Part shown: positions 13,969-22,856 of the stretch, piece after piece
How the letters are laid out: each line of letters begins with the position of its first letter
Position numbering within the stretch: the stretch's first letter is position 1
From: Thermoanaerobaculia bacterium
GTDB lineage: Bacteria; Acidobacteriota; Thermoanaerobaculia; Multivoradales; UBA5704
Reading direction: 5' to 3'
DNA: 64,000 nucleotides
NCBI GenBank assembly: GCA_035637095.1
Contig: DASPXX010000232.1
Location: 1,741-65,740 of the forward strand
The notes under the pieces: model-generated
Databases searched by the model: none
The model's input: the letters and a program-made list of their open reading frames with translations, nothing else
Told to the model about the DNA's origin: nothing
Position numbers and translations under genes: made by a program

Positions 13969-14380
13969 AGGCCCCCTTCTTGCGCGCCGGGACGATTTTC
14001 TTCTCCACCAGATTCGCCAGGCTTTCGACGTGCACGGCCAGCCGGTCCGCGAACCAACCCAATCGCTGATCCGTCTCTGAAGCTTCATGGATTCCCGAGT
14101 CAGCCACCATGGCCAGGTATCTGGCGGTGAACCTCAGGTCCTGCACCACCGCCCGGAGCTCGCCCTTGGTATAGGATCCGCAGTACTTGGGAGCAGCGCC
14201 CGTGTATTCCTCCCCGTAGATCGTGGCGAGGGCCGGAAAGATCTCCCGCAGCATCCTGGCATGGCTCTCGGGATAGTCGCGCAGCACACATTCGCGAAGC
14301 GCCTGATCTTCCCTCCATTCTCCCGGAGCGGAATGGGGAATTCTGCTCGATCGCAGCTCCTTTTCATCACGCTCAGACAT
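13955..14380 (-). CDS. Hypothetical protein (141 aa)
   Basis: ATG 14380 overlaps the stop of the upstream zf-HC2 gene by 8 nt (translational coupling). No recognisable domain. Confidence 0.55.
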   Translation of the reverse strand: MSERDEKELRSSRIPHSAPGEWREDQALRECVLRDYPESHARMLREIFPALATIYGEEYTGAAPKYCGSYTKGELRAVVQDLRFTARYLAMVADSGIHEASETDQRLGWFADRLAVHVESLANLVEKKIVPARKKGACEGV

Positions 14381-14612
14381 CGATCCATTTCTCCTTGCGG
14401 GCCAGCTCGTGGTCACGCGTCCAGGTTGCCATCCGGGCCAATGCACCGTCGTAGGCTCCCGCTTCAATGGCCGGCCGGAAAGCCGATCGGAACGCGGCCG
14501 CGCACGGGCCGCACCCAGCCACGAGATGCCGCACCACCTGCCGGCGTTCGCGCCCGCTGGCGGTGCCCGCCACGAAGCGGTTCAGGATCTGGCGTTCCAC
14601 GCAGCCCGTCAT
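14373..14612 (-). CDS. Small zinc-finger protein with anti-sigma-type H-x3-C-x2-C motif (zf-HC2-like)
   Basis: RHLVAGCGPC matches the HxxxCxxC ZAS motif. Lies 12 nt downstream of the TPR-like gene. Confidence 0.55.
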   Translation of the reverse strand: MTGCVERQILNRFVAGTASGRERRQVVRHLVAGCGPCAAAFRSAFRPAIEAGAYDGALARMATWTRDHELARKEKWIDV

Positions 14613-14624
14613 GATCGTTCCTCC

Positions 14625-15692
14625 TCAGGCGAATGGAACCGGCCGGGTCGGGATGTGAGAGAACCGCAGCATGCGGAGCAGCCAGGCCCCGGAGGCGAAA
14701 GCACGTTCCCAGGGGTCCTCCGCCGTCGTAGCAAACATCCGGTCGAGGGCCATCAGGGCGAGAAGACCTCCTTCCTCGGGCTCGAAACCTTCGAGGTCGC
14801 GCCGGAAAGCCATGACACCGGGAATCTCTCCCGCCGCCGCCTGGAGCGCCAGCAGATCCATGGTCGCCAAAGCCAGCTCGGGGAGGTCCCGCGACTCCAG
14901 ATAGTGTTGGCGCAGACCGCCCAACGTCGCCCGTGCCTCTTCGCGCCGGCCGAGCTTCGCCTGGACCCGCGCCTCCAACCGGTACAGGCTGGTCAGCTCC
15001 TCCGTGTCGTTGGCGAGGAGTGGATACACCGATACGCCCTTGTCCAGAAAGTAGCGGATGGAATCATCTCGATTTGGGCATTCCGGTTCGATGGCGCAGG
15101 CCAGATGCAGGGCGGCTCGGCCACAGAGCGCCGGATGACGGTGGGGCGAGAGAAAGCTCCCGAGAAATCTGGCGGCGCCGCGGACAAAGCCGAGCTCCAT
15201 GAGGAGAACCCCCTCCAGCAGGCTGGTCGCGGCCCGCTCGGAAGCGGTCCGGTTCTCGTCATACGTCCACACGGCGCCATGCACGAGCGCCAGGGCTTCA
15301 TCCGGCCGCCCCTGCTCCCAGCGGACCAGGCCGAGACCGCGCAAGAACGCCGCACGCTCCGCCGGCTCGACAAGCGCCGGGACGGTACAGACGAACGCCT
15401 CGGCGGCCAGCTCGTGGTCGCCGCTCAAGCGGCGGGCATTGCCTTCGAGGCAGCCGGCCCGGGCATGGAGCCGGTCTGCCACCTCGGCCGGCGTGAGGCG
15501 AGACGCCACGTGGCCGGCGAGCCGGGCGAAGCGCAAGGCCTCGGCGGGTTCCGCGAGCTGCGCCTCTGCGCTCCTTTGGAGCAGGAGCTCCGCCAGATCG
15601 AGGGAGTGGAAACGCACCTGATCGAGAAGGCGGTGCCGCTCCTCGGGCGTCGCGGCGGCGAGCAGCTCTGCGCGCAACGCTTCAGCGGTCAT
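14625..15692 (-). CDS. Helical-repeat (TPR-like) protein, partner of the upstream XRE HTH gene
   Basis: 355 aa, all-helical Ala/Leu-rich repeats. Start overlaps the HTH gene stop by 4 nt. Confidence 0.7.
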   Translation of the reverse strand: MTAEALRAELLAAATPEERHRLLDQVRFHSLDLAELLLQRSAEAQLAEPAEALRFARLAGHVASRLTPAEVADRLHARAGCLEGNARRLSGDHELAAEAFVCTVPALVEPAERAAFLRGLGLVRWEQGRPDEALALVHGAVWTYDENRTASERAATSLLEGVLLMELGFVRGAARFLGSFLSPHRHPALCGRAALHLACAIEPECPNRDDSIRYFLDKGVSVYPLLANDTEELTSLYRLEARVQAKLGRREEARATLGGLRQHYLESRDLPELALATMDLLALQAAAGEIPGVMAFRRDLEGFEPEEGGLLALMALDRMFATTAEDPWERAFASGAWLLRMLRFSHIPTRPVPFA

Positions 15693-16087
15693 CGCGAGCG
15701 GTCCGGCTTCGGCAAGGCCGCGAGCACACGTGCCTCCGCCGCCGCCTCAAACAGAGCCAGAAAGCGATCGAACAGCTCGCGATAGCGGCGAGACTCCAGA
15801 TCGCTGTAGAGAAACGTCTCGGCACCTTGTTCAACCAGGTCGGCGCGCAGCCCTCCGGAAAGCTCGGTGGCCCGGTCGAGCACGGAGCTGAGATAGAAGA
15901 CCAGCAAGGGCGTCGTTTCGAGCGCTGTGATGATCTTCCCCAGCGACTCCAGCTTGGGAAGCTCCTTCCCATTCTCATATTTCGAGAGCCGGCTTTTTCC
16001 GATCAGCGCCTTCCTCGCGATCTCCGCCTGGGAACAGCCGGCGAGCTCGCGGAAGACGCGGAGCGTGAGGCCCAGGGTTTCAAACAT
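15689..16087 (-). CDS. XRE-family helix-turn-helix transcriptional regulator
   Basis: MFETLGLTLRVFRELAGCSQAEIARKALIGKSRLSKYENGKELPKLESL is a classic Cro/C1 HTH. ATG 16087 by codon count. Confidence 0.8.
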   Translation of the reverse strand: MFETLGLTLRVFRELAGCSQAEIARKALIGKSRLSKYENGKELPKLESLGKIITALETTPLLVFYLSSVLDRATELSGGLRADLVEQGAETFLYSDLESRRYRELFDRFLALFEAAAEARVLAALPKPDRSR

Positions 16088-16505
16088 GCGAACCCCCGCT
16101 CGCGGCACCTTGCCCTTGCACATTTCTCTGCAACCGGTCCATCAAGGCCGATTCGATGGAATTGATTTCTGCTGCACTGGGACGCATCTGATCCAAAACG
16201 GCCAGAGTCTCCGCGTCGACTCCCGTCCGCAGGTCTGATGCCGCGTTCTCGACACTCACAATAACTCGTTGCAGGAGACCGCCCAGAAAGGCAGCAACGC
16301 TGAGAGATCCTCCCTCCCGCAGGAGCGCGACTTCTTCTGGATCGGGGGGAGGCAGTGCATCCTGGGATTCCTGGAGGATCGCTGTGACCCGTTCGAGAGC
16401 CTCCGCCTGCTCGAGGATTTGGCGGGTGACGCCCGCCGCCGGGAGCGCGATTTCCATGACGGCGAATCGTAGAAGGGAAAGGTGGTCCGGCTCCACCGGT
16501 CCCAT
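16080..16505 (-). CDS. Hypothetical protein (first gene of the minus-strand regulatory operon; start 16505 or 16457)
   Basis: Coding-like codon usage on manual translation. Stop overlaps the HTH gene start by 8 nt. No SD at either ATG. Confidence 0.4.
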   Translation of the reverse strand: MGPVEPDHLSLLRFAVMEIALPAAGVTRQILEQAEALERVTAILQESQDALPPPDPEEVALLREGGSLSVAAFLGGLLQRVIVSVENAASDLRTGVDAETLAVLDQMRPSAAEINSIESALMDRLQRNVQGQGAASGGSHV

Positions 16506-16600: not shown

Positions 16601-19600
16601 ATGGCCCGAGGCTTTCGCGCGTTGAAGATCTGGTTTCTGTCCATCTGGCATGGCGTGAATCAGAAGCAGCTCGGTGTGCGCGCCGGGTACAAGGATGAGA
16701 AGAAGGTGTCCTACCTCCTTGGCCGGCCCGACATCAAGGACGAGGATTTCGAGAAACTGCTGGCCGGCACGCGGTGCACGCCCGCGGAGGTCGAGCTCGT
16801 CACCGCCTGCCTCGATGGCCTGCAAAGCGCGGAGGCGAACCAGGCCTTGACCGAGAAGGAGCTCGAGGAGGTCGAGCGGGGCATCCGCGAGGGCGCACGG
16901 TTTCTGCGGCCTCTCCTGTCCGAGCTGGCCGTGGAGACCCGCTGGGTGCCTCCCCTGGACGTCTATCCCCGCCCCGCCGATCTCGCGCCAGCTCGTTTTC
17001 ATGCCTGGCGGCAATGGGAGATCCTGGAGACCATGACCGAGGCCGAGCAGCTCGCGGTGGTCCGGCTCAACGAGGACCACCACAGTTGGGCCCTGATGGA
17101 ACGCGCCTGCGAGGCCTCGACCGAGCAGGCTTCCCGCGACGTCGAGCGCGCGGCTTCCCTGGCGCGGGTCGCCCAGGAGATCGCCGACCGGGTCAAGGGC
17201 CCGGAAGGCTGGCAGACCGCTCTCCGCGGGTACGCGGCGGCGTTCGGGCCGAACGTGGCGAGAGTGGCCGGTGAGCTCAAAGCCGCCCGGGCCGGCCTCG
17301 AAGCGGCGAAGCAGGGCTGGAACGCCGGCTCCGACCCGGACCGCGTGCTCGACCCGGGAAGGCTCCTCGATCTGGACGCCTCGCTCTGCCGGGCCGAGCG
17401 CCAGTTCGAGAAGGCCCTGGCCCTTCTCGACGAGGCGTACCCCGTGAGCCGCTGCCCGGCGCGCATCCTGATCAACAAGGCGTTCGTCAGGGAGGTGATG
17501 GGCGAGTACGGCCGCGCGATCGAGATCCTCCTCCAAGCCGAGCCCCTCATCGACCGGAGCGCCGAGCCGCGCCTCTGGTACAAGCACCGGGCTTCCCTGG
17601 CGGTCAACTGCTGTCATGTCGGGGATTACAGGAAGGCCGCTGTGTTGGCCGACCAGGCGGAGCCTCTCGCCAGAGAGCTCGGCGATGAGCTGGAGGTCAT
17701 CCGGTTAGGTTGGCTCCACGGAAGGGTCGCCGCCGGGCTGGGGCATCGTGAAGAAGCACGCCAGCTTCTCGAACAAGCAGCGCGAGAATTCGGGGCACGA
17801 GGGATGTGGTACGACGTGGCCTTGGTCCAAATGGATGTCGCGAGTCTGCTGATCGAGGAAGGCCGGGCCGGCGAGGTCAAGGCGCTGGCCCGGGAGCTGG
17901 TCAAGATCTTTGCTGCGAAGGGCGTTCACCGGGAGGCCCTGGCCGCCTTGCGGCTCTTTCACGAAGCCGTGCAGCGGGATGAGGCCACGGCCGCTCTCGC
18001 GCGCCGCGTCCTGGATTACCTCTTCCGAGCCCGCTACGACCAGGGCCTCCGGTTTACGCTCACAGAAGGCCGTGGACTAACCGTTCGGGTCGAACCCGAG
18101 GCCTTCATCGGAGGTGAGGCCGTCGGGATCGAACCCGATGCCTTCATCGGTTCTGGGGCAGCCACTGGGATCGAACCGGCAGCCTTCATCGGAGGTGAGG
18201 CCGTCGGGATCGAACCCGAGGCCGACATCGGCTTCGGCGCTCCAGAGCGACGAGACGAGGCTCCAGAGCCGATCCCAGAGAGCCGGCTGGCCGGCCGACG
18301 AGGCGAGGAGCGACCCGGCGAGGACGACTGCGGCGAACGTTGGGCGCATCGGAAAGTCTCCTGCGCGGCGCCGGCATCGAGCCATCACGGTCCGCGCGGG
18401 CCGCGCCTGCCGGATATCCTGCGGCAGGAGCCTGCGAAAAATCCCACTCTGCTGCCGGTAGAGGGCGGGATGACCTGGAAGAACAAGGTCGTGCGTCTCG
18501 TCCGGGCGCTTTCCGGCCAAAGCCAGGAGCGCTTCAGCGAGATCACAAAGGTCGATCTCCGCAACTTCGACCGCTATGAACAGGGCAGAAGCCAGCCCGG
18601 CGCCGAGACCCTGGAACGCGTGGCCCGCCGGGGCTATGGCCTCGAGGTCCAGGAGGCGGAAGAGGTTCTGCGCTTTGCCGAGTCCCTGCGCCGGCCCCGG
18701 CAACGCTCCGGGCAGACGGTGGAGGTCCTCGTGGACGATCTCGCCTTCCTGGTCTCGCGGGTCTACCAGCGCCTGCTCCGCCTGCCCCTGGAAAGAGCCT
18801 TTCCCGGACCCGAGGATCCGCGGCACATCGAGACGCTCTGGTCGCTTCTGAAAGACCTCCCCGAAAACCAGCAGCGCGCCGTGGTCCAGGCGGGAACGAA
18901 GTTCCAGAATTGGGCGCTCGCGATCCGGGCCGGCGAGGAGTCGGTGAGCCAGGCCTCTCGGGACCTCGAGCACGCGGCTTCTCTCGCGCGTCTCGCTCAG
19001 TGGATTGCGGATCTGGTCCCCGGGCCGGAAAGCTGGCGGAATTGCGTCCGAGGTCTCGCGGCCGGCTATGGCCCCAATGTCCTGCGCGTTGCAGGCGACC
19101 TCGAAGCGGCCCGGGTCGGCATGGAGCTGGCGAGACAGCTCTGGGCCACGGGTTCCGATCCCGCCGGACTGCTCGATCCGGGGAGGCTGCTCGACCTCGA
19201 CGCTTCGCTATGCCGCGCCGAGCGCCGCTTCGAAGACGCCCTGGCCCGGCTCAAAGAGGCCTTGGCCGTGGGGCGCAATAAGGGGCGCATCCTGGTCAAC
19301 AAAGGTTTCACCCTGGAGGTGATGGGCGACTACAAGGGCGCCGTTGAGGCACTGCTCGAAGCGGAACACCATATCGACCGAAACGCCGATCCCCGACTCT
19401 GGTACAAGCAGCAGGGCAACCTCATCGCAAACTACAGTCTCACTGGCCGCTTTCAGGAGGCTACCGAGCTGATCCGTCAGGTCAGACCGGTCGTCGAGGA
19501 GCTGGGGGACCAGCACGAGCTCCTTCGGCTCACCGGGCTCGAGGGCCGTTGTGCCGCCGGGCAAGGCCGGAGCGCGGCGGCCGTGCTGCTGCTGACCGAA

Positions 19601-19906
19601 GCGCGGCAGGCGTTTGCCGACCGGGACATGTGGTACGACGTGGCGCTGATGGACCTGGAGATGGCGCCCCTGCTGCTGGCCGAGGGCGCGGTGGCCCAGG
19701 TGAAGCAGATGTCGGCGGAGCTTGTGGCTGTCTTCGAGGAGAAGGGCATCCACCGCGAAGCCCTGGCCGCCCTGAAGCTGTTCCACGAGGCGGCCGAGCG
19801 CGAACAGGCCACTGCCGAGCTGGCCCGGCGGGTGCTGGAGTTTCTGTTTCGGGCGCGGTGGGATGAGGGGTTGAGGTTCGGCGCCATCGCCCCGGCCGCC
19901 CGGTGA
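16601..19906 (+). CDS. Tandem in-frame fusion of two paralogous HTH + TPR-like receptor modules (module A 16601..~18055, repeat linker, module B from internal ATG 18470)
   Basis: GGGGGAGG SD before ATG 16601. Both halves share ...LDPGRLLDLDASLCRAER.FE.AL..., PRLWYK, MWYDVAL, GVHREALAAL.LFHEA, RRVL.(Y/F)LFRAR(Y/W)D.GLRF. There is no stop codon between the end of module A homology (~18055) and module B. Confidence 0.7.
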   Translation: MARGFRALKIWFLSIWHGVNQKQLGVRAGYKDEKKVSYLLGRPDIKDEDFEKLLAGTRCTPAEVELVTACLDGLQSAEANQALTEKELEEVERGIREGARFLRPLLSELAVETRWVPPLDVYPRPADLAPARFHAWRQWEILETMTEAEQLAVVRLNEDHHSWALMERACEASTEQASRDVERAASLARVAQEIADRVKGPEGWQTALRGYAAAFGPNVARVAGELKAARAGLEAAKQGWNAGSDPDRVLDPGRLLDLDASLCRAERQFEKALALLDEAYPVSRCPARILINKAFVREVMGEYGRAIEILLQAEPLIDRSAEPRLWYKHRASLAVNCCHVGDYRKAAVLADQAEPLARELGDELEVIRLGWLHGRVAAGLGHREEARQLLEQAAREFGARGMWYDVALVQMDVASLLIEEGRAGEVKALARELVKIFAAKGVHREALAALRLFHEAVQRDEATAALARRVLDYLFRARYDQGLRFTLTEGRGLTVRVEPEAFIGGEAVGIEPDAFIGSGAATGIEPAAFIGGEAVGIEPEADIGFGAPERRDEAPEPIPESRLAGRRGEERPGEDDCGERWAHRKVSCAAPASSHHGPRGPRLPDILRQEPAKNPTLLPVEGGMTWKNKVVRLVRALSGQSQERFSEITKVDLRNFDRYEQGRSQPGAETLERVARRGYGLEVQEAEEVLRFAESLRRPRQRSGQTVEVLVDDLAFLVSRVYQRLLRLPLERAFPGPEDPRHIETLWSLLKDLPENQQRAVVQAGTKFQNWALAIRAGEESVSQASRDLEHAASLARLAQWIADLVPGPESWRNCVRGLAAGYGPNVLRVAGDLEAARVGMELARQLWATGSDPAGLLDPGRLLDLDASLCRAERRFEDALARLKEALAVGRNKGRILVNKGFTLEVMGDYKGAVEALLEAEHHIDRNADPRLWYKQQGNLIANYSLTGRFQEATELIRQVRPVVEELGDQHELLRLTGLEGRCAAGQGRSAAAVLLLTEARQAFADRDMWYDVALMDLEMAPLLLAEGAVAQVKQMSAELVAVFEEKGIHREALAALKLFHEAAEREQATAELARRVLEFLFRARWDEGLRFGAIAPAAR
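18077..18349 (-). CDS. Candidate secreted repeat peptide (90 aa) encoded antisense to the A-B linker
   Basis: ATG 18349 preceded by AGGAGA (about 6-nt spacer). MRPTFAAVVLAGSLLASSAG is signal-peptide-like. It is followed by 4 repeats G(L/I/C)(G/R)FDP(D/S/N)G with DNA periods 39/42/39 nt (multiples of 3). Stop TAG at 18077. Confidence 0.4.
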   Translation of the reverse strand: MRPTFAAVVLAGSLLASSAGQPALWDRLWSLVSSLWSAEADVGLGFDPDGLTSDEGCRFDPSGCPRTDEGIGFDPDGLTSDEGLGFDPNG

Positions 19907-19930: not shown

Positions 19931-20441
19931 GAAGCCAGTCTGGTCGAAGCCGACTTCAGTCGGATCCAACCCGACTCCTCTCTTCTTGGACAGGAAAGCC
20001 GTCGGGTCCGACCCGACTCCTCGCTTGTTGAACGAGAAGCCAGTCTGGTCGAAGCTGACTCCAGTCGGGTCCAACCCGACTCCTCTCTTCTTGAACAGGA
20101 AAGCCGTCGGGTCCGACCCGACTCCTCTCTTGTTGAACGGGAAAGGAGTCGGGTCCAACCCGACCGCGCTCCCGTTGAACGGGAAAGGGGTCGGGTCCAA
20201 CCCGACTGCGCTCCCGTTGAACAGGAAAGGAGTCGGGTCGAACCCTACTGCGCTCCCGTTGAACGAGAAAGAAGTCGGGTTGAACCCGACCGTGCTCCCG
20301 TTGAACGAGAAAGGAGTCGGGTCGAACCCGACCGCGCTCCCGTTGAACGAGAAAGAAGTCGGGTTGAACCCGACCGTGCTCCTGTTGAGCGGGAAAGGAG
20401 TCGGGTTGAACCCGACTGCGCTCCCGTTGAACGGGAAAGGC
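19931..20441. repeat. Tandem hairpin repeat array: 2 x 105-bp units then 7 x 42-bp units, 11 copies of GTCGGGT-NNN-ACCCGAC
   Basis: Hairpin cores at 19959, 20001, 20064, 20106, 20148, 20190, 20232, 20274, 20316, 20358, 20400. The 42-bp unit is GTCGGGTyyrACCCGACyGyGCTCCCGTTGAACGrGAAAGrr and contains a second 7-1-7 palindrome TCCCGTT-G-AACGGGA. Confidence 0.9.
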
Positions 20442-20597
20442 ACCATCGCGGTCGCAAGAGACTCCTGGGAGGCCGAGAGCGGCCGCCTCCGGCAGAGCGA
20501 GAGCCCCAGCGTGCCGGTCGTGATCCCCCACGTACGGCTCGATTTCCCCATCGTGCCGGTCCCGTTCCCCGGCGTACCGCTCGCCGGTACAGCGTAC

Positions 20598-21059: not shown

Positions 21060-21509
21060 TCACCAGGCTTCGTCTTCAGCTCGACTCGGCGCTCGAAGAC
21101 CCCAGAGGATGAGCACCAGCGCGACCAAAACCGTGGGTGCTGCCGAATACAGCACCACTTTGATGACGATCTCCTGAGCGGGACTGCCGTGAGCCCCTCC
21201 GGCCGCCAACGGGATCGTTGAGTTACCCACTCCCCAGATCGCCGCCAGAACGTAGGGGACCAGCGTGGCAAATGCCGAGTAGACGAACGACCACCACGCG
21301 ACTCGCGACATCGCTGTCCCGAGATTCAACTTCGGCCACAGGAGGCCGAACGCCAGTAACATCACGCTCTGCAACGCGCTGAGCGTATGGACGGACAACC
21401 CGAGCCTCGGGAACGGGAAGAATGGGATGACGAAGCCTTCAACCGAGCAAAAGATGAGGAGCGCGACGCCGATTTGAAGAAGCCTGCGACCCTGGCGCGT
21501 CGTTGTCAT
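21060..21509 (-). CDS. Small integral membrane protein (about 4 TM)
   Basis: Four hydrophobic spans (LLQIGVALLIFCSVEGFVIPFF, ALQSVMLLAFGLLW, VAWWSFVYSAFATLVPYVLAAIW, VVLYSAAPTVLVALVLILW). Family not assigned. Confidence 0.65.
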   Translation of the reverse strand: MTTTRQGRRLLQIGVALLIFCSVEGFVIPFFPFPRLGLSVHTLSALQSVMLLAFGLLWPKLNLGTAMSRVAWWSFVYSAFATLVPYVLAAIWGVGNSTIPLAAGGAHGSPAQEIVIKVVLYSAAPTVLVALVLILWGLRAPSRAEDEAW

Positions 21510-21523
21510 CGTCTCCTCTCCCA

Positions 21524-21561
21524 GTCAGACAGCCCTACTGTACTCCCGTCGAGCGGGATGG
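21524..21561. repeat. Second, weaker degenerate solo copy of the 42-bp unit in the divergent promoter region
   Basis: gtcagacagccctactgtactcccgtcgagcgggatgg shares ccctactg / ctcccgt / ga.cggga with array unit 7. Confidence 0.4.
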
Positions 21562-21587
21562 TCACCGTTTGCTACAAAATAGGCCGC

Positions 21588-22856
21588 ATGGAAGCGCTCG
21601 ACGTCGCCGTGATCGGAGCCGGCGCTGCCGGCCTGGCCGTCGCGGACGAGCTCCACCGCAAGGGCTTCTCCCTGGCGGTCTTCGAAGCCCGCGACCGCAT
21701 CGGCGGACGCATCCTGACGCACCGGGACGCCCGGGTGCCCCTGCCGATCGAGCTCGGACCCGAGCTCATCCACGGCGAGGCCCCCGAGACCCGGCGCATC
21801 CTCCGCGAGGCCGGACGCCTCGCCATCGCGGTAGAAGGAGACTCCTGGGAGGCCGAGAGCGGCCGCCTCCGGCGGAGCGAAAGCCCGTGGAAGGACATCG
21901 ACCGGCTGCTCCAGAAGATCGACACGTCCGGCCCGGACCTCTCGTTCGCCGACTTCCTCGCCCGCCGACCCGGCGGCAAGTCCCTGGCCCAGGCCCGCGA
22001 AAGCGTCCGCCGGTTCGTCCAGGGGTTCCACGCCGCGGACGTCGAGCAGATCAGCGCGTGCTCCCTGGCGGGAAGCGACAGCGGCGAGGCGCGCGACGCC
22101 GGCCGTGTGCTGGGGGGCTACGATCAGGTCCCCGCCTGGCTGGCGCGAGACCTGGGGGACGCCATCCGGCTCGGCTGTCCCGTCACCGGGATCGACTGGG
22201 AACCGGGACAGGTCGAGCTGACCCTGGGGACCGGCGAGCGCGTCCGCGCCCGGGCGGCGGTGGTGACCGTCCCGCTCGGGATTCTCCAGGCACCGCCGGA
22301 CGCACCCGGCGCGATCCGCTTCCGGCCCGAGGTGCCGCGCCTGTCGAAGACTCTCGGCCGGCTCGCCATGGGCAGCGTCCTTCGCCTCGTCTTCTGGTTC
22401 CGCGAAGCTCCATGGAAGGTCGACCGTCTGGGGTTCCTCTTCACTGGAGACGAGACCTTCCGCACCTGGTGGACGGCCTACCCGCTTCTCGCGCCGCTCG
22501 CCGTCTGCTGGTCCGGTGGCCCGCCGGCCGCGGGGCTCACCGGCGTACCGGTTGACGAGATCGCCGGCCGCGCCCTCCGCACCCTCGCCACCCACCTCGG
22601 CCTCCCCCGCCGTCGCGTCGAGTCGCGCGTCCTCGACTTCTGGATGCACGACTGGCAGACCGATCCCTGGTCGCGAGGAGGCTACAGCTATCCCCGGGTG
22701 GGAGGCGCGCACGCTGCGCAAGCCCTCGCCCGGCCCATCAAGAAGACCCTGTTCTTCGCCGGCGAGGCCACGGCCGGGGAGGGAGAGAACGGGACGGTGG
22801 AGGGGGCTCTCGCCTCCGGACAGAGGGTGGCGCGGCAGGTGAGCCGGGCGTTATAA
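21588..22856 (+). CDS. FAD-dependent amine oxidase (flavin monoamine/polyamine oxidase family)
   Basis: DVAVIGAGAAGLAVADEL...FEARDRIGGR dinucleotide fold. C-terminal LFFAGEATAGEGENGTVEGALASGQRVA. Start MEALD by codon count. Confidence 0.9.
   Translation: MEALDVAVIGAGAAGLAVADELHRKGFSLAVFEARDRIGGRILTHRDARVPLPIELGPELIHGEAPETRRILREAGRLAIAVEGDSWEAESGRLRRSESPWKDIDRLLQKIDTSGPDLSFADFLARRPGGKSLAQARESVRRFVQGFHAADVEQISACSLAGSDSGEARDAGRVLGGYDQVPAWLARDLGDAIRLGCPVTGIDWEPGQVELTLGTGERVRARAAVVTVPLGILQAPPDAPGAIRFRPEVPRLSKTLGRLAMGSVLRLVFWFREAPWKVDRLGFLFTGDETFRTWWTAYPLLAPLAVCWSGGPPAAGLTGVPVDEIAGRALRTLATHLGLPRRRVESRVLDFWMHDWQTDPWSRGGYSYPRVGGAHAAQALARPIKKTLFFAGEATAGEGENGTVEGALASGQRVARQVSRAL

Follow-up and report, generated by a model that had tools for sequence, protein, structure and literature searches.

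Peptide quorum sensing with a cytoplasmic receptor is regarded as a speciality of the Gram-positive Bacillota, and the described RRNPP systems were all found in these bacteria and in their mobile elements (PMC10075063; PMC9765709). In such systems, which include Rap-Phr, NprR-NprX, PlcR-PapR, AimR-AimP, Rgg-SHP and PrgX-PrgQ, the gene for a signal-bearing propeptide adjoins the gene for a receptor built of tetratricopeptide repeats (TPR), which usually carries an XRE-type helix-turn-helix (HTH) domain at the N-terminus. Here we describe a locus in the Acidobacteriota, located in a stretch of 64,000 nucleotides (nt) from a Thermoanaerobaculia bacterium (GenBank assembly GCA_035637095.1, contig DASPXX010000232.1, positions 1,741 to 65,740 of the forward strand; hereafter the window). 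An initial annotation had proposed that a secreted multi-repeat pro-peptide is encoded antisense to the linker of a receptor at this locus, and that the two might form an RRNPP-like pair outside the Firmicutes. Our comparative analysis indicates that the minus-strand open reading frame (ORF) at 18349..18077 is almost certainly a genuine gene, and that the peptide family to which it belongs is large, acidobacterial and without a description in Pfam, NCBIfam or the searchable literature.

The locus resembles the systems of the Bacillota in that a propeptide gene with a putative signal adjoins genes for TPR proteins, usually with an N-terminal XRE-type HTH, in that the candidate active part lies in the C-terminal portion of the precursor, and in that the cassettes have been multiplied and diversified within genomes. 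It differs from them in that the host is an acidobacterium with two membranes, in that the similarity of the receptor in sequence and fold is only marginal, and in that the cores are Gly/Asp/Pro turns, often with a Cys pair, whereas the RRNPP peptides are short, linear and unmodified. Furthermore, the genes are arranged in a convergent/divergent sandwich with a 6-nt overlap of the stop codons. In the Rgg/SHP and PrgX/PrgQ systems the peptide gene is likewise convergent to or divergent from the receptor gene, and there, as may be the case here, overlapping transcripts and a shared control region allow control by antisense transcription or promoter interference. However, the SHP and PrgQ peptides are hydrophobic and exported by PptAB without a Sec signal, whereas the peptide described here has a putative Sec-type signal of the classical kind and hydrophilic, turn-rich cores. 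Multi-pheromone propeptides are known from the Rap-Phr systems of the phages phi3T and phi105 (PMC11343458), and in our family, too, several putative copies of the mature peptide are separated by spacers within a single precursor, in variable copy number. Processing by extracellular proteases and binding to Rap have been shown experimentally for the phage propeptides (PMC11343458), whereas both steps are predicted here, for a receptor that unlike the phage Rap proteins has an HTH domain.

A small peptide gene and its family

The gene on the minus strand has the following parts:

18077..18349, minus strand: pre-pro-peptide gene encoding 90 amino acids (aa) and ending in a TAG stop, assigned to a family of small, predicted secreted peptides with DPxG cores
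18290..18349, minus strand: putative Sec-type signal peptide, aa 1-20, MRPTFAAVVLAGSLLASSAG, from sequence inspection, with a layout common to all homologues
18224..18289, minus strand: Trp-rich pro-region, aa 21-42, with the family motif LWxxLxSxWS, from alignments
18080..18223, minus strand: four core units, aa 43-90, from Tandem Repeats Finder and alignments
18357..18362, minus strand: Shine-Dalgarno sequence AGGAGA, 7 nt 5' of the ATG, its GGAG being invariant in 16 of 16 aligned loci

The start codon is the ATG at 18349-18347, and the product runs through MRPTFAAVVLAGSLLASSAG, QPALWDRLWSLVSSLWSAEADV, GLGFDPDGLTSDE, GCRFDPSGCPRTDE, GIGFDPDGLTSDE and GLGFDPNG to the TAG stop at 18079-18077, which follows at once. 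The ATG preceded by AGGAGA, the signal-like beginning, the Trp-rich spacer and the four units with periods of 39, 42 and 39 nt had all been pointed out in the initial annotation, and each of them was recovered in our analysis. The N-terminus has an MR n-region, a hydrophobic core of 14 residues and the residues S-A-G at positions -3 to -1; the two criteria by which it was classified as a signal peptide were inspection and a hydrophobicity rule. The Trp-rich segment QPALWDRLWSLVSSLWSAEADV contains three Trp residues, and W29 is invariant in the family alignment, as are the D, P and G columns of the cores. The four cores in the window are GLGFDPDG, GCRFDPSGC, GIGFDPDG and GLGFDPNG, separated by spacers of the type (L)TSDE or PRTDE, and Tandem Repeats Finder places the repeat at 18085-18231 (period 39, 3.7 copies, score 176). 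The same DNA is also open on the plus strand, where it lies within an ORF of 1101 aa (16601..19906); the G+C content of the window is 67.7%.

Homologues of the 90-aa product were found at several levels. A sequence search returned 11 small proteins of 64-98 aa with 44-70% identity, all of which have the same N-terminal signal, an (L/I)WSxxxSxWS motif and 2-4 cores. The contigs of these homologues and of the TPR relatives yielded 18 distinct homologous genes from 17 loci, in the alignment of which indels occur only as whole codons; the stop is located 0-15 residues past the last core in all 18 genes and 0-5 residues past it in 17 of them. A metagenome scan seeded with the core motif alone added 37 further loci with the same layout. 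The resulting set at the DNA level comprises 55 genes, mostly of 42-121 aa (sampled profile matches reach about 150 aa), in which the start, the signal, the LWxxLxSxWS motif, 1-5 cores and a stop soon after the last core are kept. The N-terminus, with MR, a hydrophobic core of 12-15 residues and small residues at -3 and -1, is conserved in all homologues, and the consensus of the core, (D/E/N)xGCx(F/W/M/L/I/A)DP(D/N/S)G(x)C, describes a turn motif that is usually flanked by a Cys pair. Finally, an exhaustive profile search retrieved 726 representative clusters at E<=1e-3 and 107 at E<=1e-10, mostly of 56-150 aa and matching from residue 1.

Scans of the peptide and 12 family members against Pfam and NCBIfam gave noise only, the family was not found on viral contigs, and a collection of 15 billion proteins contains no exact copy of the 90-aa peptide. 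Literature searches on RRNPP in Acidobacteria, on signalling peptides in Thermoanaerobaculia and on RRNPPA in other phyla found no relevant publication. Repeats related to the cores were also seen in three large secreted proteins (P0133, P0142 and P0187; 640-780 aa), in which a globular N-terminal domain is accompanied by repeats of the xDPNG type, 7-10 stretches by profile match and more by eye; these repeats may hint at the binding partner or the fold of the core motif.

The peptide codons and the codons of the plus-strand ORF are exactly antiparallel and in register, such that the third codon position on the minus strand is the first position on the plus strand. For the closest pairs of homologues, the ratio of nonsynonymous to synonymous differences (pN/pS) is 0.16, 0.28 and 0.45 in the peptide frame, whereas the in-register frame on the other strand gives 1.56, 1.12 and 1.18. 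Among seven non-overlapping pairs, the differences at peptide codon positions 1, 2 and 3 number 83, 72 and 143 (binomial p=8e-5), and amino-acid identity, averaged over aligned codons, amounts to 0.51 for the peptide frame and 0.39 for the antisense frame. Likewise, the signal from G+C at third codon positions (GC3) in the plus frame fades in the segment 18030-18450, where the third-position phase of the minus strand has the highest GC content. As judged from these comparisons, purifying selection acts on the peptide frame and not on the opposite strand, and it is the plus-strand linker rather than the peptide that fits the description of a shadow ORF, unconserved and with a pN/pS of about 1. 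The initial annotation had named conservation of the minus-strand frame across related genomes as a check on its proposal, and the relatives indeed display whole-codon indels together with a synonymous bias. The homologues and the purifying selection thus bear out its view of the antisense ORF as a gene for a small, signal-bearing multi-repeat pro-peptide.

Regulator cassettes and the read-through frame

The plus-strand ORF that covers the peptide gene can be divided into three segments:

16601..18055, plus strand: module A, an HTH-like and TPR regulator that converges on the peptide gene, with homology ending at ...GLRF and its own stop missing
18056..18469, plus strand: the so-called linker of the 1101-aa ORF, in which a tail of seven codons is followed by the antisense of the peptide coding sequence and by a 120-nt non-coding control region
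18470..19906, plus strand: module B, an XRE-HTH and TPR regulator of 478 aa, divergent from the peptide gene, from Pfam, AlphaFold2 and Foldseek

Modules A and B are paralogues with 55% identity, and the order of the cassette is an A-type TPR gene, the peptide gene on the opposite strand and a B-type TPR gene. The C-terminus of a TPR gene converges on the peptide gene within 160 nt in 17 of 18 cases, the exception being a locus with an internally deleted A gene (L011), while the N-terminus of the B-type gene is mostly located 66-172 nt upstream of the peptide gene in divergent orientation. The loci found through the peptide alone have a homologous TPR gene within 2.5 kb in 34 of 37 cases, and among those with enough flanking sequence the TPR gene is convergent at 22 of 31 and divergent at 22 of 33. 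The close neighbourhood of the peptide gene to HTH and TPR proteins, which the initial annotation had inferred from this single locus, is thus near-constant in both sets.

Cassettes may also be iterated, as in locus L001 with four TPR genes, three peptides and one remnant. In a subfamily of five loci (L024, L041, L043, L045 and L052), a Cys-less GxxFDPNG peptide is followed by a co-directional protein with an N-terminal HxxxCxxC motif (anti-sigma-like, zinc-finger type) and a homologous TPR domain; at three loci (L024, L041 and L045), this protein also has a Fis-type HTH at its C-terminus. Since the TPR domain is kept despite the altered gene order and DNA-binding domain, the linkage appears to be to the TPR domain. 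Another set of regulators is located nearby in the window, at 14373-16123, and consists of a zf-HC2-like ORF of 79 aa, a TPR protein of 355 aa and an XRE HTH protein of 144 aa; its homologues accompany the cassettes in loci L002 and L004. Just downstream of the TPR/peptide cluster of a Holophagales metagenome-assembled genome (MAG; L009, 6140-6457) we observed a tandem repeat of about 123 nt in which several frames are open.

Among the 36 loci where a TPR gene converges on the peptide gene, 27 have an A-type gene that ends with ...GLRF followed by 1-2 aa and a stop. This stop is lost in nine loci, including the window, and in all nine the frame stays open into module B. At 14 loci (8208-8213 in L002 and 13 others), the ends of the peptide and TPR genes have 6 nt in common, namely the hexamer TCATGA, TCATAA or TCATAG: the peptide gene closes with ...G-S(TCA)-stop, and TCA, read on the other strand, is the TGA stop of the TPR gene. 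In four of the nine read-through loci, a change of the Ser codon from TCA to TCC, synonymous for the peptide, destroyed the stop of the TPR gene. The frame then remains open because plus-frame stops would require TTA, CTA or TCA codons in the peptide gene, of which there are only 7 among 1380, because the control region of 108-120 nt is conserved and stop-free, and because module B is in frame by happenstance in the clade of the window. The divergent module B is in register at 22 of 40 loci (55%), and if the nine read-through loci and L011 are set aside, at an estimated 12 of 30 (about 40%), near the one-third expected by chance.

Two soil metagenome runs contain the window sequence with no indel at the tail of module A, and the read-through is thus not an assembly error. 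NCBI, JGI and ENA list the 1101-aa ORF (P0279) as a protein, and the peptide is missing from the public protein sets of this genome because gene callers prefer the longer antisense ORF. We consider the 1101-aa ORF to be a read-through by-product and its linker, on the comparative evidence, no conserved protein segment. The placement of the peptide gene inside a receptor linker in the initial annotation needs to be revised on this point: most relatives encode A and B separately, and what was taken for a linker is read-through over the peptide gene and a conserved control region that is non-coding.

A second repeat array is present downstream of module B:

19931..20441, no strand assigned: array B, about 12 units of 42 nt with two palindromes each, from repeat analysis

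The palindromes of array B are AGTCGGGT-nnn-ACCCGACT and TCCCGTT-n-AACGGGA, and the first of them agrees at 15 of 17 nt with the DNA that encodes the last core. The array is convergent to module B, at the site where locus L004 has a second peptide gene, cognate to B, and we considered whether it might be a functional second peptide gene here. This was rejected on the grounds that the palindrome is absent from the 54 fetched loci and that no leader motif is present upstream; nor does the array itself contain a leader, a Shine-Dalgarno sequence, a start, a signal or a stop. Its copy number differs in a close relative, where 263 nt are skipped. Array B probably arose by amplification of a leftover stretch of core-coding DNA, and its presence does not count against the peptide gene. 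Next to it, about 60 nt at 20450-20510 duplicate an internal fragment of the downstream amine-oxidase gene at 21387-22856 (DSWEAESGRLRQSESP versus DSWEAESGRLRRSESP), which suggests a local rearrangement.

Two other readings of the coding evidence should be weighed at this point. The repeats could be a non-coding DNA or RNA hairpin array like array B, with the ORF as a chance shadow frame in a GC-rich genome, a concern already raised in the initial annotation. Each GFDP-coding unit is able to form a stem of 5-8 bp, the last core shares the sequence with array B noted above, and the window gene taken alone has a folding-energy z-score of -1.5 relative to synonymous-codon shuffles. The mean z-score over the 18 genes is, however, +0.14, and since the hairpin potential of the family thus equals that of the shuffle controls, the stems appear to follow from encoding G-x-G-F-D-P with GC-rich codons; nor did a scan of the whole window at the Rfam gathering thresholds give any match. 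A hairpin array also fits poorly with a start, ribosome-binding site, signal, Trp motif and stop that are kept in 55 homologues at about 50% identity while the spacers vary, and with free variation at synonymous sites in a frame that is maintained across homologues. The comparative data essentially refute this reading, and we regard it as exceedingly improbable. It is less far-fetched, yet unlikely, that both strands code and that the clade of the window also makes a tandem receptor of 1101 aa in which A, linker and B are joined, with the read-through maintained by selection. The nine out of nine loci in frame with module B, the intact tail of module A in the two soil runs and the database entries would all be expected if this were so. 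On the other hand, the linker frame has a pN/pS of at least 1 and poorly conserved amino acids, and the linker translations of relatives are rich in Ala, Gly, Val and Pro and mutually dissimilar. The stop-free state is accounted for by the codon register, the rarity of the three codons and the conserved control region, the register of module B is near chance elsewhere, the TPR stop was destroyed in four loci by a change that is silent in the peptide, and A or B is truncated in several read-through relatives. Such a fusion and a signalling function of the peptide could both hold, as the two are not mutually exclusive.

Control region and transcription

Two conserved elements are located between the peptide gene and module B:

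18350..18411, minus strand: conserved GC-rich candidate leader or operator, GGCAGGCGCGGCCCGCGCGGACC...GCCGGCGCCGCGCAGGAGAC, with 82% mean column identity over 16 loci
18434..18445, no strand assigned: motif GCGAAAAATCCC, which reads GGGATTTTTCGC on the minus strand, conserved in the divergent promoter region that separates the peptide gene from module B

The alignment of the leader covers 65 nt, namely 62 nt upstream and the ATG, from 16 loci in Holophagales, Thermoanaerobaculum and soil MAGs. Its conservation exceeds that of the flanking coding sequence and is observed although the peptides of these loci are only about 50% identical. The leader, which is present once in the window, contains the near-palindromes CGGCGCCG and GCGCGG-G-CCGCGC, and the GCGAAAAATCCC motif was found in the window and in L007, L009-L012 and L014-L017. 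RNAalifold predicts a GC-rich two-stem fold for the leader; no compensatory pair changes were found in the 16-locus alignment, and the structure is thus inseparable from the conservation of the sequence. The segment at 18350..18411 is probably a 5' untranslated region, a binding site for a regulator, or both, and 18350-18445 as a whole is a candidate operator, promoter or structured leader.

In two runs of root metatranscriptomes, contigs from a close relative with about 88-97% identity cover 18119-18397 and 18254-18398, and both end at the conserved block, at 18397 and 18398, respectively. Module B is represented by one short contig only, at 19662-19695 (run X23). The region is thus transcribed with a boundary near 18398, which is compatible with a 5' end on the minus strand, the contigs themselves being strandless.

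Receptor kinship and candidate function

Bernard et al. (2023; PMC10075063) describe RRNPP systems by a signature of five points: a propeptide of 10-100 aa, a Sec (SPI) signal or export by PptAB, a receptor of 250-500 aa, TPR repeats in the receptor, and direct neighbourhood of the two genes. The peptide in the window has 90 aa and the putative signal described above, module B has 478 aa and the A-type homologues 484-491 aa, the window copy of module A being part of the 1101-aa ORF through the loss of its stop. TPR repeats are indicated by Pfam, AlphaFold2 and Foldseek, and the genes are direct neighbours at the frequencies given for the cassettes. The suggestion of an RRNPP-like pair outside the Firmicutes thus stands with regard to all five points of the signature, whereas homology to the RRNPP receptors themselves yielded marginal matches only.

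Module B matches the Pfam domains HTH_31 and TPR_12 (E 5.5e-8 for TPR_12). Its homologues number more than 555 and mostly bear the label Thermoanaerobaculia, which is a class of the Acidobacteriota, or Acidobacteria, and its genome matches come from Holophagales, Thermoanaerobaculum and other acidobacterial MAGs. In the AlphaFold2 model, which was based on 56 sequences and has a mean confidence (pLDDT) of 89.4, an N-terminal HTH is joined by a helical connector to a TPR superhelix, all-helical over residues 237-462, and the modelled fold is one suited to peptide binding. In a Foldseek search against the PDB, Rap proteins ranked second, with E-values of 4e-4 to 1.5e-3 and template modelling (TM) scores of 0.46-0.62 on the target, and these matches include the peptide-bound RapF, RapJ and phi3T Rap. 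The RRNPP models in Pfam and NCBIfam gave no match to the receptor. The similarity to the RRNPP receptors may reflect either homology or mere analogy.

Of the readings considered, an RRNPP-like signalling circuit is the one that we regard as best supported. The precursor would be exported by Sec and cut in the acidic spacers, giving rise to several GxGFDPxG peptides of 8-12 residues, which in most relatives would be closed by a Cys-Cys bridge. The peptides would build up outside the cell and then be re-imported, whereupon they could bind to the concave TPR groove of an adjacent regulator, with the convergent A-type protein as the constant partner. Altered binding of the regulator at the leader or operator could then change the expression of the peptide gene, of module B and of other targets. 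Export, processing, re-import and binding are here modelled on the gene architecture and on what is known about RRNPP systems, and we give the mechanism as a whole an even chance of being correct.

Several observations weigh against this hypothesis. The envelope of the Acidobacteriota has two membranes, so that a signal peptide must cross the outer membrane twice, and neither an oligopeptide permease nor a processing protease is conserved in the examined cassettes. In the window peptide the Cys pair is limited to core 2, and three of the four cores are devoid of it. A scan of 17900-18600 for promoter and terminator consensus sequences found no match and no sigma-70-type promoter, and other RNA contigs, equally unstranded, cover module A at a depth similar to that of the peptide region. 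Moreover, the top Foldseek matches of module B are to LGN/Pins (E about 7e-6, TM about 0.5, 14-16% identity), and the top 50 include neither NprR nor PlcR nor AimR; a profile search against PDB sequences was marginal for PlcR (E 0.006, in the HTH region only) and for NprR (E 0.008-0.04). LGN/Pins likewise has a superhelix of about eight TPR units, the groove of which holds extended peptides, but it is a eukaryotic polarity protein without an HTH domain, and the match is to the generic TPR fold and does not indicate kinship.

The main alternative is that a genuine peptide gene encodes an effector, for instance an antimicrobial, a metal-binding or a surface factor, turn-rich and either secreted or periplasmic, which the HTH-TPR proteins regulate while sensing something else. 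Tight linkage would be no less likely between a regulator and the gene that it controls, the DPxG repeats in the secreted proteins of 640-780 aa suggest a structural or binding repeat, and the Cys-flanked loops resemble stable extracellular mini-domains. The precursor also has features in common with multi-core precursors of ribosomally synthesized and post-translationally modified peptides, namely a leader, repeated short cores, conserved flanking residues and Cys pairs. These differ from it, however, in that our family has a putative Sec signal and no conserved genes for modifying enzymes nearby: no radical S-adenosylmethionine (SAM) enzyme, YcaO, lanthionine synthetase or similar protein was present among the Pfam-annotated neighbours in 10 contexts, and a PqqD/transglutaminase pair in L004 is 6.5 kb from the cassette and not conserved. 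Likewise, genes for immunity, transport or modification, as might accompany an effector, are not conserved near the cassettes. The one-to-one iteration of receptors and peptides in tandem cassettes such as L001 is the pattern of cognate pairs, the linkage outlasts changes of the DNA-binding domain and of gene order as long as the TPR domain is kept, and TPR grooves are peptide-binding modules. We therefore view an effector role as rather unlikely, although a good deal less so than a selected fusion protein.

Returning to peptide signalling, we tentatively propose, at somewhat less than even odds, a phylum-wide peptide-pheromone system in the Acidobacteriota (Thermoanaerobaculia, Holophagae and relatives), in which multi-core precursors exported by Sec would give rise to DPxG turn peptides, often closed by a disulfide, that neighbouring cytoplasmic HTH-TPR regulators would sense. 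If this is correct, bacteria with two membranes would either have arrived at the RRNPP logic on their own or possess a system that is related to it at great depth. This mode of communication would then extend to a new phylum and a new type of cell envelope, in abundant soil bacteria, and a group with few cultured members would gain candidate peptide “languages” by the hundred. Many such peptide genes would be masked in current annotations by read-through ORFs on the opposite strand, and the locus illustrates how the annotation of GC-rich genomes systematically overlooks genes that lie antisense to, and in register with, another frame.

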